Shown in pieces: positions 33,602-63,560 of a stretch of 64,000 nt of DNA. Numbering within the stretch: position 1 is the first letter of the stretch; every line of letters begins with the position of its first letter. A program made the translations under genes and the position numbers. Below the pieces are notes generated by a model that saw nothing but the letters and a program-made list of their open reading frames with translations, was not told the origin of the DNA and did no database searches. Origin of the DNA: an uncultured Bacteroidales bacterium (GTDB lineage Bacteria; Bacteroidota; Bacteroidia; Bacteroidales; UBA11471); NCBI GenBank assembly GCA_947589325.1, contig CANQAM010000002.1:39415-103414 (forward strand), written 5' to 3'.

Positions 33602-33612
33602 AAGATTTGCGT

Positions 33613-49480: not shown

Positions 49481-51490
49481 ATGGAGTATTATAACAACAC
49501 ACTTTGTATAAGCCACGCGGAACTGACAGACGGTATTCTGTCTAAACCTAACATTTCGGCAATGGTGCGACGCGGGAAGTTAGAACAGGTGCGACGTGCC
49601 TGTTACGGTACCCCCGCGCTGTTTGCCGTTAATAGTTTACCATTGAAATATCGGACGAAGGTGTACCGCCGTTATCCGGATTTACAAGAAAGTGCCAATA
49701 GCAAGCCATTTATTGATACGATAATGCCTGACGGTAGAGCAATGCAGTTCTATGCCGATTATGTTTTGGCGGACGGTCGCCATCTGCCGACGGGAAAACA
49801 GGTGGAATATGCGAACAACTGCGCTATTATGAATGCGTTTCGCACGTGTATTGACAAGAGTAACAGCCAACGTATGCGGCAAAGCAAGTCTCGGCTGAAT
49901 AAAATGGCGTTTTGGGACAAAGCTGCCGGCGCATTGCCACGGCTTGCGGATAGGTTTCCTCATTCGCTACCCGAAAGCGCCCGCCGTCTCCAACGCAAGT
50001 TCAATGAATACCTACGCGACGGGTACAGTTGCTTTATCAGCAAAAAGTACCAAAACAACAATGCAGCAAAGGTGGATAATGACGAGAAGGAAAGTTTGCT
50101 GGCATTACTTATCGGGCACCATAATAACCTCGATAATGTACTGATAGCTAATCTATACAATACCAAAGCCAAAGAGTGTGGCTGGAAATCTATTACTCCC
50201 GGCGCCGTTGGCGTATGGCGTGAGAAATTGGACTTGACAACATCTGCCGGACGACTGGGAACCGCACAATTCCGTAACAAAAAGAGTATGCAGATAAAAC
50301 GCAGTCGCCCGACAGCACCTTTCTTGATGTGGACACTCGACGGCTGGGACGTGGAGCTATTGTATCAGAAAACTATGACTGACAAAAACGGACATTCAAT
50401 TACGAGCTATTGCAACCGTCTGACATTGGAGGTAGTATTAGACCCCTGTTGCAATTATCCGATAGGCTACGCAATAGGCACCCACGAGACACCCGATTTG
50501 ATTGCCGCAGCCTTGCGCGACGCCGCTAAACACAGCAAAGAACTCTTCGGCTCGATGTTGCGGGCGAATCAATTGCAATGCGACCATTACGCATTCAAGA
50601 CCATGATGCCCCTTTATAATGCGATGGCGGCAATACTGACGCCGGCTCAGGTCAAAAATGCCAAAGCAAAAGTCGTCGAACCGTACTTCGGTTACTTAAA
50701 CAAGACCTATTGCCGCCTATTCAATAACTGGTCGGGCTATGGTATTACAACCAATCCTGAAAAACAACCTAACAGCGAGGCATTGAATAATTTGCGGCGC
50801 CATTTTCCCGACGAAGACGGTCTGCGCCGACAGATAGAGAACATGATGCAATTAGAACGTCAGCAAAAAGTCTCTGAGTTCCGGGAAATGATGGACAACC
50901 TGCCGGCAGAGCGTCGTCTGCCATTGAGTCGAGAATCGTACCTGCTACATTTTGGTGCAGAAACGGGACACAAGAATGCCATTGAGGGCGGAGGTTTGCG
51001 ACCAACATTACTCGGGGTGAAACGTGATTACGATTGTTTTGACATACGTTTTCGTGAATATGCAGGCAAGCGATGGACGATAAAATACGACCCTGACGAT
51101 TTACACGAAATTCTTGCCGTCAGTGAGGACGGTACACTCAGATTCATGCTCACGGAAAAATATGTTCAGCCAATGGCTTTGGCTGAACGGAAAGATGGTG
51201 ATGCAGCAGAACTTGCCCGTGTGGTAACATTCAATCGACAACTGGAACAGCACATTATTGAACAGCGCGCATTGGCAAATGCCAAAGTAGAACATTTAAT
51301 CGGCAGCGGATCTGACAACATACTCAGTCGCTTGCTGATATGCAACAGCGACGGGCAGCACAAACTGCCCAAAGCAAAACGACGCCTCAGCGCAGCGGAT
51401 ATTAACAGTGTTGATGTGAATACCGTCGAAATTCCGTTGATGCCACAAGGCGCGCCAGCTTCGGATAAAGACGATTATTCCATTTTCTAA
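49481..51490 (+). CDS. MuA-like DDE transposase
   Basis: 669 aa. An rve-type core (WTLDGWDVELLY...CDHYAFKT...) and a Mu-transposase-like C-terminal region (RRLPLSRESYLLHFG...WTIKYDPDDLHEILAV). A MuB-like ATPase gene follows directly. Confidence 0.85.
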   Translation: MEYYNNTLCISHAELTDGILSKPNISAMVRRGKLEQVRRACYGTPALFAVNSLPLKYRTKVYRRYPDLQESANSKPFIDTIMPDGRAMQFYADYVLADGRHLPTGKQVEYANNCAIMNAFRTCIDKSNSQRMRQSKSRLNKMAFWDKAAGALPRLADRFPHSLPESARRLQRKFNEYLRDGYSCFISKKYQNNNAAKVDNDEKESLLALLIGHHNNLDNVLIANLYNTKAKECGWKSITPGAVGVWREKLDLTTSAGRLGTAQFRNKKSMQIKRSRPTAPFLMWTLDGWDVELLYQKTMTDKNGHSITSYCNRLTLEVVLDPCCNYPIGYAIGTHETPDLIAAALRDAAKHSKELFGSMLRANQLQCDHYAFKTMMPLYNAMAAILTPAQVKNAKAKVVEPYFGYLNKTYCRLFNNWSGYGITTNPEKQPNSEALNNLRRHFPDEDGLRRQIENMMQLERQQKVSEFREMMDNLPAERRLPLSRESYLLHFGAETGHKNAIEGGGLRPTLLGVKRDYDCFDIRFREYAGKRWTIKYDPDDLHEILAVSEDGTLRFMLTEKYVQPMALAERKDGDAAELARVVTFNRQLEQHIIEQRALANAKVEHLIGSGSDNILSRLLICNSDGQHKLPKAKRRLSAADINSVDVNTVEIPLMPQGAPASDKDDYSIF

Positions 51491-51500
51491 ACTATATAAT

Positions 51501-52361
51501 ATGTTACAGGAAGAAAAACAACAAATTGCTACAAGCCTCAAAGGCTACTGCGACAGGAAAGGAAGTCAAAATAAGGCTGCCAACAGTATGAACGGAGTCA
51601 GCTCTGCCACCATAAGCAAGGTACTGGCAGGCGACTGGGAAACAATTAGTGACGAAATGTGGCGCACGATAGCCGCCCAGACGGGACACGAGGCAAAGAC
51701 GTGGCACATCGCTGAAACACGTGCATATAGCCGCATGGGCTTCCTGCTCGACAATGCTCGTGAGGACAGCCTTGTATTGGCTGTTACCGGCGATGCCGGC
51801 TGTGGAAAAACGGAGGCGATAAAAAACTATGCTGCAACTCATCGCAATGTATATCATTTGTGCTGTTCTGAATACTGGAATCGTCGCACGTTCATGGGCA
51901 AACTGCTCAAATGTATGGGCATGGATTTTTCCGGCGCTACCGTATCAGACATGATGGACGATATCATCGACGCTCTGAAACGCAAGGAACTCCCGCTGGT
52001 CGTCCTTGACGAAGCAGACAAGTTGAGTGATCAAGTACTCTATTTCTTCATCAGCCTTTACAATCAGTTAGAGGGACATTGCGGCATCATTCTTTGCGCC
52101 ACAGATTTTCTGGAAAAACGCATAAAAAAGGGGTTGCGGATAAAACGTAAAGGCTATGAGGAAATATACAGCCGTATGGGGCGCAAGTTCGTGGAGTTGC
52201 AGGTCGTGAATACGGCGGATATAGCCGCCGTTTGCGTGGCAAACGGCATAACCGACACCAAAGAAATAAATCGGATAGCAGACGATTGCGAATGCGACCT
52301 GCGCCGCGTAAAACGCGCTATTTGGGCGATACAAAAGAACGGAGAACAGCATAACGATTAA
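51501..52361 (+). CDS. MuB-like AAA+ transposition ATPase
   Basis: N-terminal HTH-like segment, Walker A VTGDAGCGKTEAI and Walker B LVVLDEADKL. Confidence 0.85.
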   Translation: MLQEEKQQIATSLKGYCDRKGSQNKAANSMNGVSSATISKVLAGDWETISDEMWRTIAAQTGHEAKTWHIAETRAYSRMGFLLDNAREDSLVLAVTGDAGCGKTEAIKNYAATHRNVYHLCCSEYWNRRTFMGKLLKCMGMDFSGATVSDMMDDIIDALKRKELPLVVLDEADKLSDQVLYFFISLYNQLEGHCGIILCATDFLEKRIKKGLRIKRKGYEEIYSRMGRKFVELQVVNTADIAAVCVANGITDTKEINRIADDCECDLRRVKRAIWAIQKNGEQHND

Positions 52362-52400
52362 GACGATTAACGATGTACCTTATCTGATGGGAAAATAAAC

Positions 52401-53039
52401 ATGGGTCGAGCGATAAGCAATAAGAATGTACTGACAGCCAAATTTGAAGTAGCCGACTTCGAGGGGACTTTCCTTGCCAGCTTCGGGCGGCCGGAACTGC
52501 GAGGCGCATGGATGATCTACGGCGGCAGCGGTTGCGGTAAAACCACCTTTGTGTTACAGATCTGCAAGTACCTTACCCGCTTTCGCCGCGTGGCATACGA
52601 CAGTTTGGAACAAGGTTTAAGCCTCTCGCTAAAACGAGCATGGGAGCGGGTCGGCATGGCAGAAGTCGGTAATCGCATCATTCTGCTAAATAAAGAGGGT
52701 TTGAAAGATGTCCGCCTCCGGTTGGAAAAAAAGCGTAGCCCTGATGTCATTGTCATCGACAGCGTGCATTACTGGTTAGGACTTAAAATGTCGGATTATA
52801 TAAACCTACGTAAAGACTTTCCCGATAAGTTGTTCATTTTCGTATGCCATGAAAAACACGGGCTTCCTGATGGAAAAATAGCTGAAAAGATACGATACGA
52901 CAGCGATATAAAGGCTCGAGTAGAGGGTTACAAAGCATTTATAACCTCTCGGTACGAAATAGCCGAACTCGGCGAAGGTGGCGCGGACTTCGTGATATGG
53001 GAGCAAGGCGCACAGGAATATTGGATTGATAAAATGTAA
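52401..53039 (+). CDS. Small RecA-fold P-loop NTPase (AAA_24/Sak4-like?)
   Basis: 212 aa. Walker A YGGSGCGKTT and Walker B-like DVIVIDSV. Family assignment is uncertain. Confidence 0.6.
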   Translation: MGRAISNKNVLTAKFEVADFEGTFLASFGRPELRGAWMIYGGSGCGKTTFVLQICKYLTRFRRVAYDSLEQGLSLSLKRAWERVGMAEVGNRIILLNKEGLKDVRLRLEKKRSPDVIVIDSVHYWLGLKMSDYINLRKDFPDKLFIFVCHEKHGLPDGKIAEKIRYDSDIKARVEGYKAFITSRYEIAELGEGGADFVIWEQGAQEYWIDKM

Positions 53040-53045
53040 AACGAT

Positions 53046-53525
53046 ATGACAGAGAACAGGACGATGGACGCGATCCATCGAAACATCTTAAAGAAATTCC
53101 ACACCCTTTGCAGTGCATTGGGGCTTACCGAAGCAGAAAAGCGTGCCATAGTTGAAAGCTATGGTGTTGAGAGCAGCCGCGACATGGATACGCACGATTT
53201 GATAAACGTGTGCGGAAAACTTTCGGAACAGGCAAACGAAAAGGTGGGCGCAGGTGAGATGGACAAGTTGCGAAAACGGGTTATGGCTGCTATCGGAGCC
53301 TATCTGAAAGCCGTAGGCAGAGAGAGTAACGCCACCGTGATAAAAGGCATCGCTTGCCGGGCCACGGGGCATGCCGACTTCAACAAGATACCGCGCGAGC
53401 GGCTGCGTAATCTGGTGGCGGCGTTCAACAACAAGGTAAAAGACGCGCAGGCGGTGAATGAAATAGCCGACGGCCTGCTGTTGCAGTCTTATTTCGAATA
53501 TGGAAGACCACAAGCAAAAGCGTGA
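53046..53525 (+). CDS. GemA / Mu gp16-like protein (DUF1018)
   Basis: 159 aa. IHRNILKKFHTLCSALGLTEAEKRAIVESYGVESSRDMDTHDLINVCGKL is typical of the GemA family. Confidence 0.65.
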   Translation: MTENRTMDAIHRNILKKFHTLCSALGLTEAEKRAIVESYGVESSRDMDTHDLINVCGKLSEQANEKVGAGEMDKLRKRVMAAIGAYLKAVGRESNATVIKGIACRATGHADFNKIPRERLRNLVAAFNNKVKDAQAVNEIADGLLLQSYFEYGRPQAKA

Positions 53526-53528
53526 ACC

Positions 53529-53759
53529 ATGAGCAGCAAGAGAGACATTATAGAAATCGTGCCGCCGCCTTTTGTCGAAAAAAAGAACCTGACCGAATGT
53601 ATAACAAGCAATACTCATTTATGCAGCCACTGTCATGGTAACGGGTTCTTTTGGCAAAATGAAATGAATATGGCAGAGAAAAAGACCTGTCCGGTGTGCA
53701 ATGGCAGTGGTAAACTCCATGCCACGATCACCATCAAGTGGAAACCTGTAAAACAATAA
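53529..53759 (+). CDS. 76-aa protein with two DnaJ-type CxxCxGxG zinc-finger motifs
   Basis: CSHCHGNG and CPVCNGSG, separated by 18 residues. Confidence 0.65.
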   Translation: MSSKRDIIEIVPPPFVEKKNLTECITSNTHLCSHCHGNGFFWQNEMNMAEKKTCPVCNGSGKLHATITIKWKPVKQ

Positions 53760-53763
53760 GAAA

Positions 53764-53937
53764 ATGAGAAAAGACAAAATCGTAAAAGCGTTAAAGACGG
53801 TCGGTGCCATACCGTTCGTAGCAGTAGGAGTCGTACTCTTGTTTGCGGCTATCGTACTGAGAGCAGCCGGATATATGTTCCTGTTCGACACCGAGGCTGC
53901 GAAATATGAAATAAACCAAATCAAACCCAATAAATAA
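53764..53937 (+). CDS. 57-aa single-pass membrane protein
   Basis: Hand-translated: MRKDKIVKALKTVGAIPFVAVGVVLLFAAIVLRAAGYMFLFDTEAAKYEINQIKPNK. Tightly packed between neighbouring genes; below the ORF-track size cut-off. Confidence 0.5.
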   Translation: MRKDKIVKALKTVGAIPFVAVGVVLLFAAIVLRAAGYMFLFDTEAAKYEINQIKPNK

Positions 53938-53944
53938 CTTGTAT

Positions 53945-54598
53945 ATGGAAAACGTAACGATGACAGCGGAAGAACGCCGAGAGTTTGAAGCGTACCGCGC
54001 AGAAAAAGCAAAAAAAGAGGCGGCAGCACGCCGGAAACAGCAGCGTGCCGATTATGCCGGAATGGTAGATGACGAGCTGTGCACGACACTGCCGATTCTC
54101 AAAGAGTTGAGCGAGCGGATAAAGGTCGTGAAAGACACTGTTTTCGGGAATTTCGAAGCGATTTTGAAGATGAAGTCCGACGTGCTGGGCCTGACCAAAG
54201 AGATGCAGCACAGCCACACCTTTACGTCGAGCGACAGCCGCTTCCGCCTGACCCTCGGCGTGAACACCATCGACAGCTACCGCGATACGGTGGAAGATGG
54301 CATTGCCATGGTCAAGGCCTACATACAGAGCTTGGCCAAAGACGATACGAGCAAGGCGCTCGTAAACGCTGTTTTGCGGCTGTTGAGTCGCGATCAAAGC
54401 GGCAACATCAAAGCCAGCCGTGTGCTGCAACTTCGTAAAATGGCACAAGAAACAGGCGACGAACAGTTCATTGAGGGCGTGCAGATCATCGAGGAGAGTT
54501 ACCAGCCTACCGAGTCTAAAAAGTATATTCGTGCCGAGTACAAGAACGACAAAGGCGCGTGGGTCAATGTACCGCTCGGAATGACCGACGTGGATTGA
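53945..54598 (+). CDS. DUF3164-family protein (conserved in Mu-like early regions)
   Basis: ATG 53945 (the ORF track uses TTG 53939). ...GNIKASRVLQLRKMAQETGDEQFIEGVQIIEESYQPTESKKYIRAEYKN... matches my recollection of DUF3164. Confidence 0.65.
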   Translation: MENVTMTAEERREFEAYRAEKAKKEAAARRKQQRADYAGMVDDELCTTLPILKELSERIKVVKDTVFGNFEAILKMKSDVLGLTKEMQHSHTFTSSDSRFRLTLGVNTIDSYRDTVEDGIAMVKAYIQSLAKDDTSKALVNAVLRLLSRDQSGNIKASRVLQLRKMAQETGDEQFIEGVQIIEESYQPTESKKYIRAEYKNDKGAWVNVPLGMTDVD

Positions 54599-54678
54599 CA
54601 GCAGCGCCCGCTCCATCTGCAAGAAAGAAACGGGCGCAAGCCTTGTTGCCACAGGGTTTTGCAAAAATAAAAAAATAA

Positions 54679-54939
54679 ATGCAGATGGACAAGCGAAAAC
54701 ACCACGAAAGCACCATCGAGAGGGTCAGGATGGTAAGAGCCGTAACGGCAGAACATTACGAAAGCGGCAATCAGGCGCGGTGCTACAAAGCTGTATGGCG
54801 GCAGCATATTTTCCCGAAGTTCAAAATCTGCTATCGCACCTATCTGAGTTATTTGGGCATACCGACGCCTCCACCCGTGCCGAAACATTCCCCACAAGCA
54901 AGTCTATGGGACATCATGCAAGAAAAACCTGCTGAATAG
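54679..54939 (+). CDS. Last early-operon gene: small putative regulator (Mor position)
   Basis: 86 aa and basic. The assignment is positional only; its stop codon sits in the loop of the operon terminator. Confidence 0.4.
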   Translation: MQMDKRKHHESTIERVRMVRAVTAEHYESGNQARCYKAVWRQHIFPKFKICYRTYLSYLGIPTPPPVPKHSPQASLWDIMQEKPAE

Positions 54940-54958
54940 TTGCAGGTTTTTCTTTTTT
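54923..54958 (+). terminator. Intrinsic terminator ending the early operon
   Basis: Stem AAAAACCTGC (54923-32) / GCAGGTTTTT (54942-51), then CTTTTTT. Confidence 0.85.
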
Positions 54959-54961
54959 CTA

Positions 54962-54969
54962 TATATTTG
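54962..54969 (+). promoter_or_regulatory. Bacteroidetes -7 box (TATATTTG) for the moron gene
   Basis: Exact TAnnTTTG match 18 nt upstream of ATG 54987, immediately after the terminator. Confidence 0.5.
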
Positions 54970-54986
54970 GGGAAAATTGTACGATT

Positions 54987-55484
54987 ATGAAATCCATTAT
55001 TGTTTTGTCATTAATGCTATTTGCTGCGTCGTTTTCTTATGCCGACGATTATGCACGGTATTTTGAATGCGCGGACAAGAACGACGTTCAGGGAATGATT
55101 GATAGTTTATTATCCAGAGGCACACGCCAGTATAATCTCAAAGAAATTCGCAAGCGTAATGCAGACAGCGATCATATCATAGATTATATTTATCTCGGAG
55201 CCAATGCCGATTTTCCCGATAGCGTAAAACTGTTCGTCGAAGTCAATTTCTTTATGAAAGACGCAAATCCTGATATGAATATAACAGGAACACCGGTATA
55301 TAAAATAAATTCTATCGTCGGCGAATATCTGGACGTGTTACCTATATACCAGATTGTATCTCCGGAAACAACCGCAGAAAGCGCTGTTCGATACGGAGCC
55401 AATACAGATGTGCCCGATTCTCCTTATAAAGTCCGTTACAGTATTCGGAAATCATCGGCCGGTTGGAGATTCCGCCGTTTTTGA
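54987..55484 (+). CDS. Secreted protein of unknown function (prophage moron)
   Basis: 165 aa with signal peptide MKSIIVLSLMLFAASFSYA. It has its own promoter box and is AT-richer than its neighbours. It lies between convergent operons. Confidence 0.65.
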   Translation: MKSIIVLSLMLFAASFSYADDYARYFECADKNDVQGMIDSLLSRGTRQYNLKEIRKRNADSDHIIDYIYLGANADFPDSVKLFVEVNFFMKDANPDMNITGTPVYKINSIVGEYLDVLPIYQIVSPETTAESAVRYGANTDVPDSPYKVRYSIRKSSAGWRFRRF

Positions 55485-55496
55485 GGTACTCGGTTG

Positions 55497-55979
55497 CTAA
55501 TGGTTTAATGACAATTTAATACTGCCGGACTTCATGCTTGGAGGCATGGCAGTCGTGTCCTGTGCATTAGTGACGAATCGCTCGACGCTCTCCATCAGTT
55601 CGGCGTGGTCGTGATTGGTGGCCGATGTGGTCAGTTGGAAGCCGGCAAAGTTGTCGCCCCGCAACCCCTGCATGGCGGTGTCGATGCGTTCGATCAGGTC
55701 GAAAAATACCAATGCTTCCGGCATTTTCCGGTCGGTGTGTCCGTGCGTCGCCACGGCCCGCGTTACGATGTGCAGCCGCACGGCCACGTCGCCGCGGCGC
55801 GCTCCGTTGTTCTGTTGCCGCCACTCTATCTCCTCGAACTCGACAAATACGGCCGGCATCGGCCATACCGCGCCGCCGTTCAGTGCGGCGACATTGTTGT
55901 TCCACAGGTCGATGAATTGAATATCCGGCACGCACGCGGCGAGACGTGCGCAAATGGCTTGAAAGATTTGTTTTCTCAT
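55497..55979 (-). CDS. Virion structural protein, possibly head-tail joining / neck
   Basis: 160 aa. Last gene of the minus-strand late block, with a 4-nt ATGA overlap with the gpG-like gene. No motif recognised with confidence. Confidence 0.5.
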   Translation of the reverse strand: MRKQIFQAICARLAACVPDIQFIDLWNNNVAALNGGAVWPMPAVFVEFEEIEWRQQNNGARRGDVAVRLHIVTRAVATHGHTDRKMPEALVFFDLIERIDTAMQGLRGDNFAGFQLTTSATNHDHAELMESVERFVTNAQDTTAMPPSMKSGSIKLSLNH

Positions 55980-56434
55980 TTTCGTATGAATTTTGTAAGT
56001 TGCCCATTGAAGTCGGCGAGATTGTCCTCGATGATCCCTTTGATAATCTCCTGCGTACGTTTGCCGTCGCCCACGAACTGGCGCTTCGGCATGTTGAATT
56101 TGCGCGTGTGCGCCTTTACCGTGTACGGCTTCCCCTTTTTACTGGTGCGGGTATGTTGGCGCACAGACTTTGTCCCGCTGCCACCTTCATTATGAATAGC
56201 AGCGTATGGCACGGCCGAGGAGAAGCGCACGCCGTCGCCTCTTACTTCGGTCTTTATGCTGCGCCGCATCGTGCCCGTTACCATCAGCAGCGAGCCTTTG
56301 GGATATTTATAGGCCCGGGGCTTCCACTTGTCGGTAAAAAAGGCCTTGCGCTCGAAGTTGCGGTCGAACTCCTCGGAGAGTTCCACGCGCATGTCGTTCA
56401 ATATGTTTCTTTTCAGTTGTTCCCCGTCTATCAT
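55976..56434 (-). CDS. Mu gpG-like virion morphogenesis protein
   Basis: 152 aa. VPYAAIHNEGGSG and FNMPKRQFVG correspond to the YAAIHQFGG / MPARPFL motifs of the Mu G family. Confidence 0.75.
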   Translation of the reverse strand: MIDGEQLKRNILNDMRVELSEEFDRNFERKAFFTDKWKPRAYKYPKGSLLMVTGTMRRSIKTEVRGDGVRFSSAVPYAAIHNEGGSGTKSVRQHTRTSKKGKPYTVKAHTRKFNMPKRQFVGDGKRTQEIIKGIIEDNLADFNGQLTKFIRK

Positions 56435-56476
56435 TTTAATTATCGTTTAATTGTTGGTAATTCAAAAAAATAGTTG

Positions 56477-56484
56477 TAAATTTG
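56477..56484 (+). promoter_or_regulatory. Bacteroidetes -7 box (TAAATTTG) directly upstream of the 78-aa ORF
   Basis: Exact TAnnTTTG match ending 4 nt before ATG 56489, which implies a leaderless or near-leaderless transcript. Confidence 0.45.
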
Positions 56485-56488
56485 CGAT

Positions 56489-56725
56489 ATGGTAAAAATT
56501 ATAGATAAAATAGAAGAATGCCCTTATATGTGTGAGCACTGCAAGCACTTTAAGCAAGGACATACTTGTTTGGCTTTTGACAACATACCATTAAGCATTT
56601 TGCTTGATGCAGAAAGCCATACAACGGTATTGCCTGAACAAAAAGGCGCTTATGTCTTTGAGCCGGCAAAGCCCCGTGATACCATGCGTGTTTATGTGGA
56701 CGGTGCCGAAGAACCGGAATATTGA
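56489..56725 (+). CDS. 78-aa Cys/His-rich protein, antisense to the late operon
   Basis: MVKIIDKIEECPYMCEHCKHFKQGHTCLAF... It has its own promoter box and lies in AT-rich DNA. Its 3' end overlaps the MuF-protease stop by 34 nt (convergent). Confidence 0.55.
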   Translation: MVKIIDKIEECPYMCEHCKHFKQGHTCLAFDNIPLSILLDAESHTTVLPEQKGAYVFEPAKPRDTMRVYVDGAEEPEY

Positions 56726-58245
56726 TACTTTTCTGCATATAGTTTTTTAATTATAGTTCCAACCGCAACCGCAATAGGTCGCGGTTTTTCATTATTTAGA
56801 TACTCAGACCAAGCCTCAGCAATAAATTCAGCTGCGTTTTTATGTCCGTAGGAGGACAAGTTCTCCGTAATATGCGCTTTGCCTTTTGACATTTCCTCAT
56901 TATATATTTTGAGGAAATCCTTGTGAGTACGAAGTCCGATAAGTCGGTCAATTTCGTGCCCGAGTTCGTGGTCAAAAACAGCTTTCAATGTACCGGTTCC
57001 AAGTGGATGCCCTTTTGCCTGCACATCCTCTTCAAGCGACTTGTCTATTTTTTCACCTTTCCATGATGTATTGAAGCAAATGCCAGATAACCCCCAATCC
57101 TTAAATGCGCCATGAGAATAGGCATAAGTGTTTTTGCCTGCCCTTACTTTCATGCGGGTAATCCACCGGCTTACTTCTTTTTTCAACACTTCGTCCCCAA
57201 ATTTTGCATAATATGGGTCTGCCTTCAGTTCTGCAAGTTTGCGCTCGGAAAGTAGTTTAATGCGCCCAAGTATAGTGCCGACGAATAGTGTCTCTTTTTT
57301 TAATTCGGGGAAACATTGGAAATGCCTTTCCACACTCCTGAAAATGCTTTCTATTTGGTTCATGTTACTTTTATTAAATCCGGTCAAAGAGCATTTGACA
57401 CCCAATTTATCGCAAAAGAATTGTTCGGCTTCCTCGATTGTTTTTGGCGTCCATTCCGCAGGGGTATAGCCATTAATAGCTTGTTTCACCTGTTCGGGGT
57501 CCGGGCATTTGTAGTACGGGTGCTTTGGCGGAAAAAGTTGTAGCGACTTTCCGGCATTATAGCGAAATATAGACCCTTTTTTCCCGCCTGTACAGTCTTC
57601 GCCGAGCCGCATGGCGGTTTCGGGATTGGAAAGGGGGTATTTGTTTTTGCGCACCTGCACGGTCGTACAGCGGCAGTTCCATCCGTTGGGTGGGAGAAAC
57701 ATCGACCAGAACGGGTCGTCAGGCGGCAGGGTTATGCCGTTCAATGCGGCGTGTTCCTCGCGCACGCGGTCGTCGCCGGCCGTCCGGTATTGCAAGTCGT
57801 AACGGTCGCCGTCCTGCTCGAAGTCGTGCCATTTGGCTGCCATTTGCGACGCACCGACAGCATGGTTGTATTCCGCGTACAGGTAGTTATGGTTGTACTT
57901 GGCATTTATCTTCCGCACGTCGGTCAGGAAGTCGTCGAACGGTTTGATGTCGCCTTTGTCGGTCAGCAGCGACAGGCCCACTTCACGCAGGGCGTGGTAT
58001 GTTTTGAAGCCGGAAAAGACGAAAGCGTTATTTTCGAGCGCGTAGCGAATCGTCTCGGGAACTTCTGTCGGCAGTTTGCTGTTTATGGCAGTCTGCAATA
58101 TCCGTAAGGTCTCTTCGATGAGCGCTCTCGACTCGGAAGCTGCCAGTTGGTCGGGGGTGAAGCCCTGACTGTCGTAAACGGTCTGTGCCGCCTCCTCGAA
58201 GAGGGAGTCGTCGAAGTCGAACGGGCGGTCCTTATCCGCCAGCAA
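56692..58245 (-). CDS. MuF/SPP1-gp7-family head morphogenesis protein fused to a C-terminal anthrax-LF-like zinc metalloprotease domain; start uncertain
   Basis: The reading frame is open from 58992, but there is no in-frame ATG between 58944 and 57843. The first plausible independent start is TTG 58245; alternatively it is entered by a -1 shift from the portal frame at 58341-58335. MuF motifs: YRTAGDDRVREEHAALNG and PPNGWNCRCT. C-terminal motifs: HELGH (56956-70) and NLSSYGHKNAAEFIAEAW. Confidence 0.8.
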   Translation of the reverse strand: MLADKDRPFDFDDSLFEEAAQTVYDSQGFTPDQLAASESRALIEETLRILQTAINSKLPTEVPETIRYALENNAFVFSGFKTYHALREVGLSLLTDKGDIKPFDDFLTDVRKINAKYNHNYLYAEYNHAVGASQMAAKWHDFEQDGDRYDLQYRTAGDDRVREEHAALNGITLPPDDPFWSMFLPPNGWNCRCTTVQVRKNKYPLSNPETAMRLGEDCTGGKKGSIFRYNAGKSLQLFPPKHPYYKCPDPEQVKQAINGYTPAEWTPKTIEEAEQFFCDKLGVKCSLTGFNKSNMNQIESIFRSVERHFQCFPELKKETLFVGTILGRIKLLSERKLAELKADPYYAKFGDEVLKKEVSRWITRMKVRAGKNTYAYSHGAFKDWGLSGICFNTSWKGEKIDKSLEEDVQAKGHPLGTGTLKAVFDHELGHEIDRLIGLRTHKDFLKIYNEEMSKGKAHITENLSSYGHKNAAEFIAEAWSEYLNNEKPRPIAVAVGTIIKKLYAEKYQYSGSSAPST

Positions 58246-58306
58246 AAGCAGATTTTTGCCGTATAACGACTCGACGGCGGTATGGAACGCAGCGTATTTG
58301 TCGCGC

Positions 58307-58341
58307 AGCCCCTCGCAGTCGGAGGGGCTTAATCGAAAAAA
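58307..58341 (-). other. Candidate -1 programmed ribosomal frameshift signal (slippery heptamer, spacer, stem-loop)
   Basis: On the minus strand: U UUU UUC (58341-58335) in the portal frame, a 5-nt spacer GAUUA, and a stem AGCCCCUC (58329-22) / GAGGGGCU (58314-07) with a 7-nt loop. The -1 frame is the MuF frame. Confidence 0.55.
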
Positions 58342-59573
58342 GAGTCGGGTTGTGTTTTCGCCTGTCGCGTACCGGTGATGGGAATGTTGTACCGATCGAC
58401 GAAATACTGCGCGTCGATCTCGAAATATTCGAGCAAAAGGCGCTCCTCTTCCCGTAGTTCGGCCGGGGTGAAAGAGGCGGCATCGTCCCACCGGAACGCG
58501 AGGCCCCGCACGGGGAAGCCGTGCTGCACCATGAGCGGCAGGAGCCGGCCGTTGATGACGTTTGCCAGCATTTTGGCGTCGGCCTTGACGACATCGTCGA
58601 AAATTTCGAGGTGCGTCTCCGACTGCGAGAGCGACGAACCGCTGTCTATCGTCATTGTTTGCATCAGAATGCCTTTGGAGAGCTCGCTGTTGCACCGGTC
58701 CACACGTTTGTCGTACACGTTGTAGGCATCGCCCCTGCTGCTTTCCTTTATTTCGATGTCCGTTCCTTCTGGGAACAAAGCCCAGAAAGCAGCACCCATT
58801 TTGTCGAGCGCGGTTTCGATGCGCCGACGCTCGGCCTCGTCGGTCGTATTGGTACGGGCCACCCGCATGGGCGCCCCGAATATTTCGCCGAACATGTCCC
58901 AGAAAGCAAGCATGTTTTTTTTGCTGATGCAGGCAGGCGCGCATTTGAGGAGCAGGCCCAAATCTTTGGGCTTGCCCACTTCGACGCACCACAGGGCGAA
59001 ATCGCCCTCGCGGTACGGTATGCCTGTGCGCCAGTCGGCAGACGGGTCAGGGGTGATGACGCCGTATTCGGGGCATACGTGTTTGCGCGGGACGAGCTCG
59101 ACACCGTCGAAGCACATGCCGTTTTCGTCGGTTACGACATCGCCCAACTGGATCAGGCTGTGCCCCCAATAGCGGCTGTCCAAGGCAAGGTCGCAGAAAT
59201 CGCCAAACCACTCTTTTTGCAACAATTTCGTGGCCTCGGCGTTTTCTTTTCCGTCCTTGCCTACCAGCCGAAAATCTTTCTGCAACACTTTCCCTTTGCG
59301 CTGGCCGATGCAGCCTGTGAGATGCAGATCGAGCAAACAGTCTGCATAAATATCGTAGAGGCGTCCCCTGTTGGGAGTGTCCGCACTGATGGCGGCCTGA
59401 TGAGCCTGCCGCCACGTTGCAATATCCTTTTTGGTAAGGCTGTCGGTTTGCTGCAAGAGCTGCGCGGTCAGTTTTACCCCCTGCCGGCTTTTGGCGAAAC
59501 GCATCAGCCTGTCCATATCTGCCGCCGGAGTGTGGCGGTCGAAAAGCTGTTTTATACTGCTTATGAAGTCCAT
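58329..59573 (-). CDS. Portal protein (DUF935 / Mu gp29 family)
   Basis: 414 aa. It lies between the terminase and MuF genes. Overall resemblance to gp29-type portals (…WRTGIPYREGDFALW…MRVARTNTTDEAERRRIE…). Confidence 0.8.
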   Translation of the reverse strand: MDFISSIKQLFDRHTPAADMDRLMRFAKSRQGVKLTAQLLQQTDSLTKKDIATWRQAHQAAISADTPNRGRLYDIYADCLLDLHLTGCIGQRKGKVLQKDFRLVGKDGKENAEATKLLQKEWFGDFCDLALDSRYWGHSLIQLGDVVTDENGMCFDGVELVPRKHVCPEYGVITPDPSADWRTGIPYREGDFALWCVEVGKPKDLGLLLKCAPACISKKNMLAFWDMFGEIFGAPMRVARTNTTDEAERRRIETALDKMGAAFWALFPEGTDIEIKESSRGDAYNVYDKRVDRCNSELSKGILMQTMTIDSGSSLSQSETHLEIFDDVVKADAKMLANVINGRLLPLMVQHGFPVRGLAFRWDDAASFTPAELREEERLLLEYFEIDAQYFVDRYNIPITGTRQAKTQPDSFFD

Positions 59574-59637
59574 TTAATTGTTGGTTAAAGAACGTTTAAC
59601 TTCGTATGAAATGCCGGCTGCAGCCGGTAGTCTGGCA

Positions 59638-60057
59638 TTAATAATCGTATTTGTTGGGCGGCATCGAGCCGTAGCGCACGGGGTTGTGCGCGTCCGTTTC
59701 GCCGCCCTCGCCCGTATAGGTAGGCAGGTCGGGCGATGCCTTGGAGCTTTGCACGTCGCGCAGCCACTGAATGGCGTCCTTGTAGAGGCATTCACGCCGC
59801 TCGTGTCCCATATTCTGCGGCAGCCGGTGGATCATCAGCCAAAGGGTGATGTTTACCGCACATTGCACGAGAAACGGATTCCGCTCGTGACCCTGTGCAG
59901 CAAAAGCCGCCTGCATATCGTACCGGTGGCGGGTATAGCTGCATATCTGTTCTATTGCCGCCTGTTCTGCGGCGAGCCGCTCGGAGGTGTTTGCACACAG
60001 CTGCTCCAGCTCGAACTCATCGCATACGCTTTTATAGTCTTCTTCTGTCAAAAACAT
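59638..60057 (-). CDS. DUF1320 / Mu gp36-like head protein
   Basis: 139 aa. MFLTEEDYKSV...IEQICSYTRHRYD...NPFLVQCAVNITLWLMIHRL pattern. Confidence 0.6.
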   Translation of the reverse strand: MFLTEEDYKSVCDEFELEQLCANTSERLAAEQAAIEQICSYTRHRYDMQAAFAAQGHERNPFLVQCAVNITLWLMIHRLPQNMGHERRECLYKDAIQWLRDVQSSKASPDLPTYTGEGGETDAHNPVRYGSMPPNKYDY

Positions 60058-60305
60058 GGTCGTCGGTTTTTAGGGTATGCTACATATATCGCGCGTTTCA
60101 TGGCCTCTGCGGAGGTGAAACTTTTTACAAAACGGCGCTGCCGTATCAGATTTTTTATTCCCTGCATGGAGACCGCGACAGGTTTGCCGTCGAATACGAT
60201 CACCAAGTACTTTTTTCCGTACCGTGCGGCGTGGCGCGTCGCTTTTTTCGTGGCGCGTCGCAGCCGCCACTCAAACACCAGTGTCTTAAATAACTTTTTT
60301 ACCAT
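60048..60305 (-). CDS. Hypothetical small basic phage protein
   Basis: ATG 60305 (MVKKLFKTLVFEWRLRRATKK...). It overlaps the TerL stop by 7 nt and the next gene's start by 10 nt. Confidence 0.5.
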   Translation of the reverse strand: MVKKLFKTLVFEWRLRRATKKATRHAARYGKKYLVIVFDGKPVAVSMQGIKNLIRQRRFVKSFTSAEAMKRAIYVAYPKNRRPCF

Positions 60306-61843
60306 AATATGTTTTTTGCATTGTTCCGCCTGCCAAAAGACGGAGTGAAACTGCTGATACGGGTATCGCGCTGCAGGTACCATATCGCGCCCTCGTCGGC
60401 ATCGGGCGCATCATCGTGGCCGCGCATACCCCGTTCAAATGCGAGTGTCTGTTCTATCCCCGCCTGCATGTCGGGGTCGTCTTTTTCCGTCTCGTTGTAG
60501 GTTACGAAACCGCGCTCCCACAGGGGGCTTATCGCCTCGATACGCTGAAACTTGTCGGGCTTCTTGCGTTTGTCCGCACTGATTGGCAGCTGGTAGCCGC
60601 GCAAATCGCCTTCGCGTCGGAACTCGTCGAGGATGGTGTCTTGCATGAAATTGGCCTCCATATACCATTTGATGGCGATACCCTGCGACTGGCTCCATTC
60701 GTAGAGGTCGTAAAGCCAGCGCACCATTTCGGCGACGCTGCACTGGCGCACAAAGGCTTTGATATGCCACAGTTGCGAACCGGCTTTGCCCCACAACTTG
60801 GCGGCCTTGTAGTCGTTTTTCGTCGTGCCCTTGAAAGACGGGTCGATATACAATACCAGTTCGTCAAACTTTTTCAAATCGGGCATTTTGCCCCACTTTA
60901 TCCAGTCGTTGCGGAACACGGCTCCCTCGGTTATCGGGTTGTTCATATACTCCTTTTGGAAAGAACGATAGCCCTGAAACTGCTCGATGGCTCTCACCTC
61001 TTTGGGTGTCCATTTGGCCGCCCACGACACATTGCCGTTCTTGTCCCAGACATTCACCTGCGAAACGTGCACGCCGTTTGTGGCGGCTATATTGGCCAGC
61101 ACGCTGTTTTTGGATATCAGGTTGCCGACCATGATGAAACGTCCGCGTCCGCCGTCGAGCGCCCCGAAAAGCGCCTCTTTAACCCAGTTTGTCAAGCGGG
61201 TAACGCGGGCGGGGCTTTCGCACAGCTCATCGTCGTCGAGGTCGTCGATGACGATGTAGTCGGGGCGGTGCGAGCGGTAGCGCAGACCGCGCGGCGACTG
61301 CCCGCGGCCTCGTGCGAAGAATGCCGTGCCGTCTTTTGTTACGAACTCGCCCTCCTCCCACGAACCGCCGTTGTACTGCTGCCCGAAGTCGTGGATATAC
61401 CGCTGGTTGAACTGCAACTCCGCCTGAATGTCGGAGAGCAGCGTGTTGGCGTTGTCCTCGCTTTTCCCCACCAGCACCATGACGTTGAGCTGTTTGTTCT
61501 GCTGGCATTTGAGCCATAGCGGAATGAATATGTCCATGTGCGTGGACTTTGCAGCTCCTCGGTGCCATTTGAATACGGCTCTCAGGTTACGATTTTGGAG
61601 AATCTTGCTCGCCGCTTTGATGTGAAACGGCGCGCAGGGCGTCCGCATGCCCGTTTCCGGATTTACGGTGTAGTGCGGAAAATAATAATCGACAAAAGCG
61701 GCATAATCGGCCCGCACGTGTTTAATGCGCAAGGCTTTGTCCTGCAAAGTCTCCGCCGTATTTACGGCCGTAGCGGCCTGTACGGTTTCGCAATGTTTCT
61801 GCCACCTTTCGATGGCGTCTCTCAATATCGCTTTCTGTATCAT
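60299..61843 (-). CDS. Terminase large subunit
   Basis: 514 aa. ATPase Walker A-like WHRGAAKST and Walker B YIVIDDLDDDE. C-terminal nuclease-like half. Confidence 0.88.
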   Translation of the reverse strand: MIQKAILRDAIERWQKHCETVQAATAVNTAETLQDKALRIKHVRADYAAFVDYYFPHYTVNPETGMRTPCAPFHIKAASKILQNRNLRAVFKWHRGAAKSTHMDIFIPLWLKCQQNKQLNVMVLVGKSEDNANTLLSDIQAELQFNQRYIHDFGQQYNGGSWEEGEFVTKDGTAFFARGRGQSPRGLRYRSHRPDYIVIDDLDDDELCESPARVTRLTNWVKEALFGALDGGRGRFIMVGNLISKNSVLANIAATNGVHVSQVNVWDKNGNVSWAAKWTPKEVRAIEQFQGYRSFQKEYMNNPITEGAVFRNDWIKWGKMPDLKKFDELVLYIDPSFKGTTKNDYKAAKLWGKAGSQLWHIKAFVRQCSVAEMVRWLYDLYEWSQSQGIAIKWYMEANFMQDTILDEFRREGDLRGYQLPISADKRKKPDKFQRIEAISPLWERGFVTYNETEKDDPDMQAGIEQTLAFERGMRGHDDAPDADEGAIWYLQRDTRISSFTPSFGRRNNAKNILW

Positions 61844-61869
61844 GGCGATTGTTTATTGTTTGCCCTCGT

Positions 61870-62343
61870 TTATTGAAATTTGTTTTGCAGCAGTTCGTTG
61901 ATATAGAGGTCGTGATACCGGTTAATGGTTTTCAGCAGCTCCGGCGTGATTTTGTCGTCGAAAGACATGCGGTATTGCATCCATTTGCTGAATGCCATAA
62001 ATACCTCTATCACGTCTACGATGGACGCCTTTTTGTCGAGCCGCTCGATGGTCGATGACAGTTTTGCCAGTTTGTCGCCTAATCCGGCCATTGCCTCCGG
62101 ATCATCGCTGTCGTTCACCTGTTCTATCAGCCGGTCGATGGTGTGCAGCAGTTTGTTTACCAGTTCGGGGCGGGTGATGTTTGCCGCGGCGCGCTGTTCC
62201 TGCCAGCCGTTATCGGCGGCCCACTTGGTGATCGTTACCGCCGACACTCCTACTTTTTCGGCGATTACCTTCTGGGCTTCGCCCTGCATAAACAGCAGGC
62301 GGGCATATTCACGCTTTTCTTCGAGTTCTTTTTTTGTTGCCAT
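61870..62343 (-). CDS. Terminase small subunit-like DNA-binding protein
   Basis: 157 aa. N-terminal HTH (ARLLFMQGEAQKVIAEKVGVSAVTITKWAADNGW). It lies directly upstream of TerL. Confidence 0.65.
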   Translation of the reverse strand: MATKKELEEKREYARLLFMQGEAQKVIAEKVGVSAVTITKWAADNGWQEQRAAANITRPELVNKLLHTIDRLIEQVNDSDDPEAMAGLGDKLAKLSSTIERLDKKASIVDVIEVFMAFSKWMQYRMSFDDKITPELLKTINRYHDLYINELLQNKFQ

Positions 62344-62576: not shown

Positions 62577-63560
62577 ATGGCAAAAGATGTAATCATTAGC
62601 ACCAGCGGCCTGAACTGTTATGGTGGCCGCGTGCTGACCTCGGGCATCGACCTGACACAGTTCCAGAAAAACCCGCTGCTGTTGTGGATGCACCGCCGTA
62701 GCTTCGAGCGTGATGCAATGCCTATCGGGCGCATCGACAACCTGCGTATCGACGGCGACCGCCTTATCGGCACGCCTGTTTTCGACCAGAACGACGAGTT
62801 TGCCAAAAAAATAGAAAGCAAGTGGGAAAACGGTTTCCTGCGTATGGCTTCAGCGGGACTCTCTATCGTAGAAATAAGCAATGCACCCGAATACCTTTTA
62901 CAAGGGCAAACCCGTGCGACAATCGTACGCAGCCGATTGGAAGAGGTCAGTATCGTCGATATGGGCGGCAATGACGACGCCTTACAATTGTATGACCGCA
63001 GCGGCAAGATGTTGAAGCTCGCCGCTGGCGTGGACAACCCTGTATTGCCGCTGCTTTCGCTCGAAAAGGATTCCGAGGGGACAGACCCTCGCAACGTGGA
63101 AAATCAAACCAATCAAAATCCAAAAAAGATGAATGAAGAAATTTTGAAGCTGCTCGGACTGCCGGACTCGGCTACCGAACAGGAAGCGGTAGGCGCACTT
63201 CGCCTGCTGAAAGAAAACGCCGAGAAAGGGGAAACACTTCGCCTTGCCGGCATTACGGCTGTTGTGGACGCTGCCATTGCCGAAAAACGTATCACGGCGG
63301 ACAAAAAGGAGCATTTCGTGAACCTCGGTAAGACGGCCGGCCTCGACGCGCTGCGCGAGACCCTTTCACTGATGCACCCCGTCAGCAAGCCCACAGAGGT
63401 AATCCGCCAGAAAGACGCGCCGCGTGCCGATGAACCGAAGACCTACGCCAAATTATCTGAGGTGCCGGCCAAACAGGTAGAAGCGCTGCGTATGGAAAAA
63501 CCGCAAGAGTACGAGCGGCTTTACAAAGCCGAATACGGCATTGAAATCCCGAAGAAATAA
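62577..63560 (+). CDS. Prohead protease with C-terminal scaffold region (Mu gpI-like)
   Basis: 327 aa. N-terminal protease-like half (NPLLLWMHR...MPIGRIDNLRIDGDRLIG...MASAGLSIVE). C-terminal helical scaffold-like half (EEILKLLGLPDSATEQEAVGALRLLKENAEK...). Confidence 0.75.
   Translation: MAKDVIISTSGLNCYGGRVLTSGIDLTQFQKNPLLLWMHRRSFERDAMPIGRIDNLRIDGDRLIGTPVFDQNDEFAKKIESKWENGFLRMASAGLSIVEISNAPEYLLQGQTRATIVRSRLEEVSIVDMGGNDDALQLYDRSGKMLKLAAGVDNPVLPLLSLEKDSEGTDPRNVENQTNQNPKKMNEEILKLLGLPDSATEQEAVGALRLLKENAEKGETLRLAGITAVVDAAIAEKRITADKKEHFVNLGKTAGLDALRETLSLMHPVSKPTEVIRQKDAPRADEPKTYAKLSEVPAKQVEALRMEKPQEYERLYKAEYGIEIPKK

Follow-up and report, generated by a model that had tools for sequence, protein, structure and literature searches.

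The locus described here raises the question of how ribosomes gain access to a MuF-family phage head gene whose reading frame is already open, one base back, at the point where the portal gene upstream of it stops. It lies on the minus strand of a 64,000-nucleotide (nt) stretch of contig CANQAM010000002.1 (positions 39,415 to 103,414) from an uncultured Bacteroidales bacterium, the whole of which is referred to as the window and numbered from its first letter. Comparison with homologous phage loci suggests that the junction of the two genes is very probably a deeply conserved −1 programmed ribosomal frameshift site from which a portal–MuF fusion protein would be made; its parts are as follows.

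58329..59573, minus strand: portal gene, zero frame, 414 amino acids (aa), 46.9 kDa (open reading frame (ORF) list, translation)
58331-58329, minus strand: portal stop codon TAA
58335..58341, minus strand: slippery heptamer T TTT TTC, which fits X XXY YYZ in the portal frame and encodes Phe-Phe there
58330..58334, minus strand: 5-nt spacer GATTA from heptamer to hairpin, made up of GAT, the final sense codon, and the TA that opens the TAA stop
58307..58329, minus strand: whole hairpin, a perfect 8-bp GC-rich stem with a 7-nt loop
58329-58322, minus strand: 5′ arm of the hairpin, AGCCCCTC
58321-58315, minus strand: hairpin loop, CGACTGC
58314-58307, minus strand: 3′ arm of the hairpin, GAGGGGCT
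56692..58341, minus strand: −1 frame from the re-paired heptamer (TTT TTT CGA TTA AGC...), 547 codons after the slip, stop codon at 56694-56692

Read along the minus strand, the junction is ACA CAA CCC GAC TCT TTT TTC GAT TAA GCC CCT CCG ACT GCG AGG GGC TGC GCG ACA AAT ACG. The portal ORF that ends there is a full-length member of the Mu-like portal family, matching Pfam PF06074 Portal_Mu (DUF935) over the entire profile (1-336/336; E=1.3e-79, 268 bits, cut-off 23.9) and also PHROG 113 portal. Read one base back, the junction falls into the frame of the MuF/zincin ORF at 56692-58992, and a census of its start codons finds an upstream ATG at 58944, a first downstream start at TTG 58245 and a first downstream ATG at 57843. 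An earlier sequence-only reading of the window had described this same heptamer in portal register, the spacer, the stem and loop, the −1 frame open through the junction and these start codons, all of which are confirmed on the sequence; its proposal that stimulated −1 slippage yields a portal–MuF(–protease) fusion finds support in the comparative data.

Taken alone, the window sequence is only suggestive. The local fold at the junction reaches −18.7 kcal/mol (z = −2.9 against shuffles), and TTTTTTC occurs 50 times in the 64 kb, so that the heptamer by itself means little; this count is about twice the 24.7 expected from dinucleotide-preserving shuffles, none of 100 of which reach 50. Perfect hairpins of at least 7 bp at a distance of 4-8 nt follow five of the 720 XXXYYYN heptamers on both strands of the window, and among those five sites the portal junction has the longest stem. 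No Rfam family matched in a scan of 58100-58500, no promoter was found in a scan at the junction, and the hairpin is ruled out as a terminator because no T-run follows the 3′ side of its stem. With the single-sequence signal only suggestive, the significance of the site rests on comparative data.

Three scans (IMG/VR with the window portal, IMG/VR with a distant fused relative, and one genome per GTDB species) gave 235 loci, both genes being present in 223 of these, which reduce to 139 distinct junctions. Portal identity falls below 50% in the scanned loci and to about 27% in Hankyphage; a nucleotide search of the junction against GenBank phages gave no match, and related phages were found in protein mode. 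Where a genome record names the host, it nearly always belongs to the Bacteroidales (Alistipes, Prevotella/Xylanibacter, Muribaculaceae, Paludibacteraceae, Porphyromonas and others). The module is also seen in metagenome-assembled genomes (MAGs) labelled Clostridia, Eubacteriales, Oscillospiraceae, Lachnospiraceae or Alphaproteobacteria (L161, L166, L167, L169, L172, L173, L175, L185); these are probably mis-binned phage contigs, since most of them are short. By tblastn, MuF lies in the −1 frame relative to the portal in 220 of the 223 loci. Hand reading of the three exceptions finds indels elsewhere with an intact cassette in L177 and L231 and a true in-frame fusion in L081, leaving L081 as the one distinct junction, of 139, where MuF is not in the −1 frame.

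The heptamer TTTTTTC stands in register with the portal frame in 131 of the 139 junctions, to which hand reading adds L223, L225 and L231, while TTTTTTT occurs in two and AAAAAAG in two; T TTT TTY thus totals 136, and a heptamer in the register characteristic of bacterial −1 frameshift sites is a general property of these loci. The zero-frame stop follows exactly one codon after the heptamer in 133 of the 139. Conservation of the heptamer extends to synonymous sites, beyond what the protein needs: portal C-terminal tails differ wholly between clades (TQPDSFFD*, KQKLVKPFFD*, QLKNFFD*, LNSFFQ*), and the codon that holds the first base of the heptamer is GCT, CGT, CCT, AGT, TCT, GAT, GGT, AAT, GTT or CAT, encoding nine amino acids and always with a wobble T. 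Elsewhere in the same portal genes the T-ending share of such codons is 23%, and the naive product of the nine background frequencies is 1.6e-6. The first Phe codon is likewise always TTT, although this is the minority Phe codon (30%). A fixed wobble T and a fixed TTT across such divergent tails argue for selection on a slippery heptamer, not on a Phe-Phe dipeptide.

These counts also bear on whether a homopolymer error, or a recent frameshift mutation, has merely split a single portal–MuF ORF, as might be supposed from the existence of single-ORF portal–MuF genes and from an apparent close fusion (P0047) that came from an indel-ridden contig. Against such an origin stand the −1 arrangement of all but one of the 139 junctions and the T6-C run shared by 131 of them in independent assemblies, drawn from sources that include the isolates Porphyromonas catoniae ATCC 51270, Xylanibacter rodentium, X. 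caecicola and Prevotella sp. MGM2 together with a HiFi-assembled MAG chromosome that also carries the cassette, as well as the placement of the zero-frame stop one codon past the heptamer. Uniformity across independent assemblies excludes sequencing error or pseudogenisation, and artefact or decay is accordingly a vanishingly improbable account of the locus; the concern over a miscounted T-run that had accompanied the sequence-only reading is removed by the 131 TTTTTTC and two TTTTTTT junctions, all with MuF in the −1 frame.

Downstream of the heptamer, a hairpin begins after 4-6 nt in 133 of the 139 junctions, with a stem of at least 6 bp in 129, and the observed median hairpin score is matched by only 0.4% of 13,081 random positions in the same loci; an RNA structure at the short, fixed spacing (∼4-9 nt) of frameshift stimulators is therefore present. 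Pair counts over 42 junctions of one hairpin geometry show compensatory changes, the seventh pair being A-U in 19, G-C in 12, U-A in 10, G-U in one and unpaired in none, and the sixth C-G in 37, U-A in four and U-G in one; the covariation score comes to 0.22, a value that none of 500 shuffles (0.09) reaches, with slid partners giving at most 0.08. In some clades the 3′ arm has relocated to other codons, with loops of 4 to 28 nt, one such move being from the Gly-Leu codons to a Tyr-Gly-Ala site ∼20 nt further on (loop 28 nt), and in others the polarity of the stem is reversed (GGGGG...CCCCC), for example GGGGGCAGGGA...TCCCTGCCCCC. Relocated arms and reversed polarity, which are independent of hairpin-based selection, are stronger evidence than covariation within a hairpin-selected subset. 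Heptamer, spacer and stem are thus conserved or co-varying among homologues, as the sequence-only reading had suggested should be asked of them.

The conceptual translation of the −1 frame bears on whether the MuF gene is entered from the portal gene or begins on its own, for which two further features are needed.

58246..58335, minus strand: a 30-codon stretch of the −1 frame, RLSPSDCEGLRDKYAAFHTAVESLYGKNLL, that precedes any start codon and holds a conserved Tyr and Leu-Tyr
58243..58245, minus strand: TTG, the annotated MuF start, giving a 517-aa, 58.8-kDa product, a start not conserved in homologues

From 58335 on, the −1 frame of the window reads RLSPSDCEGLRDKY, and from the heptamer FF-RLSPSDCEGLRDKYAAFHTAVESLY, open for 547 codons; across the 137 T-type junctions no stop interrupts it within the first 45 codons past the heptamer. 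A peptide of the form FFR-[VLI]-SP ... (G)LR..Y.AF[NH].A[LV]..LY...L.LA is conserved, and those length differences between slip site and motif that were inspected by hand all keep the −1 frame. The conserved Tyr is present in 130 of 135 sequences, the Tyr of Leu-Tyr in 126 of 135 and a conserved Leu in 122 of 136. Third-position variation at the two Tyr codons is 0.50-0.54, against at most 0.13 at positions 1 and 2 (0.50-0.75 over the Tyr and Leu-Tyr codons together), and at the conserved Leu a synonymous change separates 0.66 of sequence pairs and a non-synonymous one 0.19. Such a pattern reads as the signature of purifying selection on a translated frame, and, as the zero frame has already stopped, no other frame explains the synonymous variation.

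In most lineages this frame has no start codon ahead of its first conserved residues. No ATG, GTG or TTG occurs in the −1 frame between the preceding −1 stop, often just two codons before the heptamer, and the heptamer itself in 127 of the 137 junctions; none occurs before the conserved Tyr in 81 of 137, or before Leu-Tyr in 42 of 137, and the first start available is scattered from codon 6 to codon 107. The scatter indicates that there is no conserved initiation site, and in most lineages conserved residues lie upstream of any possible start, so that the −1 frame is open and under coding selection from the slip site without a start of its own. In the window the −1 frame upstream of the heptamer, open to 58992, is Arg-rich off-frame sequence, and its length was rejected as meaningful: in most homologues the −1 frame is interrupted by a stop 2-16 codons ahead of the heptamer.

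Two ordinary genes are one alternative, with MuF starting downstream on its own (TTG 58245), the heptamer a conserved Phe-Phe and the hairpin serving messenger RNA (mRNA) stability or the control of coupling. Public gene calls for the identical sequence follow this pattern, giving the 414-aa portal, a gap of 83 nt and a 517-aa MuF from the TTG (P0001, 100% identical), and so treat the codons at 58246-58335 as intergenic; elsewhere gene callers start MuF from a GTG at +24/+27 in some clades, the ATG of Hankyphage overlaps its portal stop, and the distant phages FPSV-S27 and pippi8-1 have separate genes with an ordinary ATG. These starts do not generalise: their position is unconserved, the synonymous-variation signature lies ahead of any start in the 81 junctions noted above, and the candidate GTG sits within a stable stem. 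A GTG in the 3′ arm was rejected as a universal start because it is not conserved, the window having GAG there. A Phe-Phe requirement also leaves unexplained the wobble T across nine amino acids and the minority TTT at the first Phe. Two independently started genes are thus an improbable explanation of the junction, and independent initiation may coexist with frameshifting in some lineages.

A variant in which ribosomes terminate at the portal UAA and restart on a nearby non-canonical codon held by the hairpin draws on the stop codon abutting the hairpin in nearly all loci and on a CUG that follows the stem in many. Several clades have CUU, CUA, CAA or other codons in place of this CUG, which was therefore rejected as a universal start; the heptamer, ahead of the stop, is where the conserved −1 peptide starts (FFR-SP), with Arg-x-Ser-Pro kept across the stop, and reinitiation has no need of a slippery heptamer in register. 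Termination–reinitiation is consequently very unlikely, and frameshifting at the heptamer remains the preferred reading.

The protein that would follow from a slip is large. Portal residues 1-413 joined to the −1 frame give a predicted portal–MuF–zincin fusion of 960 aa and 108.9 kDa, whose predicted tryptic peptides include TQPDSFFR at the junction and, upstream of the annotated TTG, LSPSDCEGLR and DKYAAFHTAVESLYGK. Two domains are recognised in the −1 product.

57661..57897, minus strand: MuF (SPP1 gp7 / Mu gp30) core domain, Pfam PF04233 Phage_Mu_F, residues 147-225 of the −1 product
56779..56979, minus strand: C-terminal zincin-like domain, with HELGH at 56970-56956, the variable effector end of MuF

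The core matches PF04233 with E=3.9e-15 (57 bits, cut-off 29.6) and the −1 product matches PHROG 324 head morphogenesis with E=7e-107, placing it in the MuF / SPP1 gp7 family. The C-terminal domain is plausibly a zincin, with the HELGH motif at residues 456-460 and a weak match to PF07737 (anthrax lethal factor family; E=8.7e-5) whose 22.7 bits lie below the 27.4 cut-off. The C-terminal third of MuF (56692-57300 in the window, minus strand) is not conserved among close homologues (P0039, P0065, L013, L020 and L069). MuF runs on for ∼410 to 563 codons past the slip, the C-terminal sequences differ, and some carry Pfam PF18798; in a few loci the −1 ORF is far shorter (140 codons in L069), possibly through truncation or disruption. 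C-terminal variability of this kind fits the idea of polymorphic MuF effectors.

Portal and MuF exist elsewhere as one polypeptide, a point the sequence-only reading had left for homologues to settle, and the relevant cases are P0099, L081 and an 853-aa ‘portal’ of Porphyromonas gingivalis phages. P0099, found by a database search with the predicted junction, is a 692-aa single ORF with both Pfam domains, to which the predicted trans-frame product aligns in one unbroken BLASTP alignment (residues 18-699, 43% identity); L081, from IMG/VR, is a second single-ORF portal–MuF, in frame, and PHROG 35074 is one profile that spans both portal and MuF. Ten P. gingivalis phage genomes annotate the 853-aa ‘portal’, which is the same portal–MuF fusion. 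In three of the phages (L242, L243 and L247, accessions PP754929, BK068094 and BK068093; coding sequence 910-3471, cassette at codon 422) the single ORF keeps CGT TTT TTC in register, a 6-nt spacer and a GCCCCG...CGGGGC hairpin, and a −1 slip there would lead to a stop after ∼20 codons (FFRVGPVARRGVHWQSPHRTN*), leaving portal alone; the arrangement would be an inverted, dnaX-like logic. In-frame portal–MuF genes are also known from Microbacterium phages of clusters EA3/EA5/EA8/EB (PMC7302621), and MuF/portal fusions to effector domains have been reported (PMC5512222). Natural single-ORF genes of this kind indicate that such a polypeptide is viable in virions. P0047 (L239, Logan contig ERR4089720_1812) was discarded as a close in-frame fusion on account of a split portal, a T5 run and other indels; what its only contig carries is a decayed or error-prone copy and no true fusion.

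In Hankyphage (L244, Bacteroides phage p00, BK010646.1, locus 3330-3440) the junction reads AAA CGT TTT TTC GGG AAA GCC CCG GGG AGA GAC GGG GCA ... TGG TGA, with CGT TTT TTC in register, followed after a 6-nt spacer by a GCCCCG/CGGGGC hairpin, and MuF again lies in the −1 frame; the zero-frame stop comes 11 codons further on, and the ATG overlaps it (ATGGTGA). L223 and L225 are of the same type, L223 having CTG where Hankyphage has ATG. A second flavour of slip site at the same junction consists of runs of 9-10 A: L140 and L141 (IMG/VR) have GCC GAA AAA AAA AAG TTA AGC TAG, with A AAA AAG used and MuF in the −1 frame, and MuF is also in the −1 frame in Winogradskyella phage Peternella_1 (L240, MT732475; CCT AAA AAA AAA AGT, A10) and Flavobacterium phage fF4 (L245, MN850656; GTA AAA AAA AAT, A9), both annotated with GTG starts further downstream. 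Lys-Lys-Lys stands at the same place in the in-frame fusions L081 and P0099, over an A10 run in L081. The Flavobacterium phages FPSV-S27 (L241, MK764448) and vB_FspM_pippi8-1 (L246, MN812205) are more distant relatives with ordinary separate genes; their MuF ATG, in the +1 frame, follows the portal stop by 4 nt, and neither has a slippery heptamer at the junction, so recoding is not universal in the wider family.

Runs of A raise the further possibility of transcriptional slippage, in which RNA polymerase would add a U in the T6 run, leaving the fusion in a single frame on some mRNAs. The outcome would be the same portal–MuF protein, and the A runs at related junctions (A10 in L140, L141, L081 and Peternella_1, A9 in fF4) have lengths typical of the process, which could also operate at those variants and is for them a real alternative. 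At the T-type sites, polymerase slippage would need neither a heptamer held strictly to X XXY YYZ in the portal frame nor a hairpin at a fixed 4-6 nt, a geometry that is that of ribosomal stimulators, and a run of six is short for productive slippage by polymerase (reviewed in PMC5009743). As the explanation of the window junction it is given little credence, and slippage by the ribosome is preferred.

Under ribosomal frameshifting, a ribosome reaching U UUU UUC would hold transfer RNA (tRNA)-Phe in both the P site (UUU) and the A site (UUC), with the GC-rich hairpin 5 nt downstream placed at the mRNA entrance and resisting unwinding; the 5-nt distance is that of known bacterial stimulators. 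Most ribosomes would not slip, reading GAU (Asp) and then UAA to release the portal protein. In a fraction of passages both tRNAs would move back by one base, re-pairing from UUU-UUC to UUU-UUU, and the slipped ribosomes would read on through CGA UUA AGC CCC into the MuF-effector ORF, so that one start codon could give two proteins, the 414-aa, 46.9-kDa portal and the 960-aa, 108.9-kDa portal–MuF–zincin. Portal C-termini point into the capsid, and proteins of the MuF family sit inside the head in association with the portal (PMC5512222); the fusion would therefore put MuF and its effector under the portal. A few fusion subunits within the portal ring could in this way bring MuF and effector inside the head at the portal vertex, in a number set by frameshift efficiency, 8-25% slippage corresponding to about 1-3 fusion subunits in a portal dodecamer. 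The slip, its efficiency and incorporation into the ring are steps that we infer from the sequences, as are any free MuF made alongside the fusion, any later cleavage and the consequence for copy number, and the claim stands as a prediction. According to PMC4066793, the tetramer hierarchy for slippage in E. coli is A_AAG >> U_UUC > U_UUU and all-pyrimidine heptamers are favoured; the three slip sites found across these phages hold exactly the A_AAG, U_UUC and U_UUU tetramers.

Several points weigh against a frameshift at the junction. The slip hierarchy was measured in E. coli, and the host phylum here is Bacteroidota; support is comparative throughout. The 42 sequences used for pair counts were picked for having the hairpin, which inflates the paired percentage, and ∼5 of the 139 junctions have a weak proximal stem or none. 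Both arms also code in the −1 frame (Ser-Pro, Gly-Leu), so that part of their conservation could be protein constraint. A GTG lies inside the 3′ arm in one clade, where gene callers use it as a start, and Hankyphage has an ATG 12 codons after the heptamer. An AlphaFold2 model of the first 332 residues of the −1 product, built with 33 homologues, reached a mean predicted local distance difference test (pLDDT) score of 50 and a predicted template modelling (pTM) score of 0.27, too poor to place the first 30 residues in a fold.

A broader possibility, held tentatively, is that in most lineages of a large Bacteroidota Mu-like clade, the globally common Hankyphage included, the MuF-effector has no start of its own and might be made solely as a portal extension, with frameshift efficiency setting the effector cargo per virion. 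The junction states described above (U UUU UUC with hairpin, A-run, cassette-keeping single ORF and separate genes) might then be interconverted forms of one two-product module, ‘portal plus portal–MuF’.

The surrounding locus is a Mu-like transposable prophage that extends past the end of the window. A plus-strand block at 49481-55484 carries the transposition genes, and the head genes lie in divergent blocks, one on the minus strand at 55497-62343 (TerS-like, TerL, gp36-like, portal, MuF, Neck1-like) and one on the plus strand with a protease/capsid-like gene from 62577.

49481-51490, plus strand: MuA-type transposase, PHROG 310
51501-52361, plus strand: MuB-type ATPase / DNA transposition protein, PHROG 296
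within the 55497-62343 block, minus strand: TerS-like and Neck1-like proteins
59638-60057, minus strand: Mu gp36-like protein
60299-61843, minus strand: TerL
62577-63560, plus strand: head protease/capsid-like gene

Elsewhere in the window, A AAA AAC stands in register at 34434-34440 (plus strand), near the 3′ end of an EamA-family transporter ORF (33607-34512), with a 7-bp hairpin (CAGCAAA...TTTGCTG) 5 nt downstream; this is probably chance or a terminator-proximal structure.

No account of a portal or portal–MuF frameshift turned up in the searchable literature (including PRFect, a recoding review of 2016, a survey of frameshifts from 2025, and papers on Hankyphage, on P. gingivalis phages and on gut temperate phages), which is not proof of absence; the papers searched likewise yielded no proteomic, ribosome-profiling or reporter results on a trans-frame product. 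The sequence-only reading had known of no portal–MuF frameshift fusion; the frameshift route does appear new, but in-frame portal–MuF fusions were already known. The components, −1 programmed frameshifting in phage structural genes and portal–MuF fusions, are familiar, and their combination and the depth of conservation appear new. To our knowledge, no natural frameshift site has been characterised in Bacteroidota, for which the junction would offer a natural, strongly conserved signal with many stem and spacer variants to compare, and several relatives have been cultured (Hankyphage lysogens, Peternella_1, fF4, P. gingivalis prophages). If the interpretation is right, it would establish a new class of phage frameshift, conserved in position, alongside those of tail chaperones and capsid genes, and hundreds to thousands of Bacteroidales prophage annotations, which currently show a ‘gap’ of 80-200 nt and an N-terminally truncated MuF from an arbitrary GTG or TTG, would need correction. 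A covalent tether made by recoding would also explain a low, fixed copy number of MuF and its polymorphic effectors at the portal vertex.

Among known systems, retroviral Gag-Pol resembles the junction in its logic: in HIV-1, −1 frameshifting at U UUU UUA followed by a stem-loop extends a structural protein into an enzyme module. The slip site is near-identical, with a short spacer and stem-loop, and a minority of assembly subunits carries cargo into the particle in both, the portal–MuF case being as predicted here; the likeness ends with the logic, Gag-Pol being read by eukaryotic ribosomes and the virus and its proteins being unrelated. The tail assembly chaperones G/GT of lambda-like and most tailed phages (Xu, Hendrix & Duda 2004, in PMC7302621 and PMC7911831) also rely on a −1 slip on X XXY YYZ near the 3′ end of a virion-assembly gene, yield in a fixed ratio a short product and a trans-frame fusion extended at its C-terminus, keep the position over very divergent phages and are routinely missed by gene callers. 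They differ in serving the tail where the present site would serve the head and portal vertex, in that a strong downstream hairpin is conserved here, and in their extension, a small chaperone domain as against a 547-aa enzyme-bearing protein. In T7 10A/10B and in the major head protein of Lactobacillus phage A2 (cited in PMC10885494), −1 frameshifting as a head structural gene ends produces a longer, minor component of the virion. What is added in those cases is a short tail on the capsid protein itself, whereas here it would be the full-length protein of the next gene.

Bacterial dnaX (tau/gamma of E. coli) and the OrfAB of insertion sequences (IS) IS3/IS911 share with the junction a heptamer and a downstream stem-loop or pseudoknot at ∼5-6 nt (PMC4066793; PMC5009743), the IS3 family likewise makes a trans-frame fusion, and A AAA AAG of L140 and L141 is the dnaX/IS heptamer. 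The dnaX shift, unlike that of the window, runs straight into a stop; dnaX is also stimulated by a Shine-Dalgarno-like element upstream. The P. gingivalis phage arrangement, in which the slip truncates, is closer to dnaX than the window is. SPP1 gp6-gp7 and the MuF polymorphic toxins (Jamet et al. 2017, in PMC7911831; PMC5512222) have in common with the locus a MuF-family head protein in phages with portal–terminase packaging, and the variable C-terminal domains of MuF are there thought to be delivered with the DNA. In SPP1 and Mu, by contrast, portal and MuF are translated separately and associate non-covalently. The in-frame portal–MuF genes (Microbacterium phages, PMC7302621; PMC5512222; P. 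gingivalis) have the same domains in the same order, often with a variable C-terminal effector. Being plain single ORFs, they place MuF on every portal subunit, whereas the link at the present junction needs recoding and would be sub-stoichiometric.

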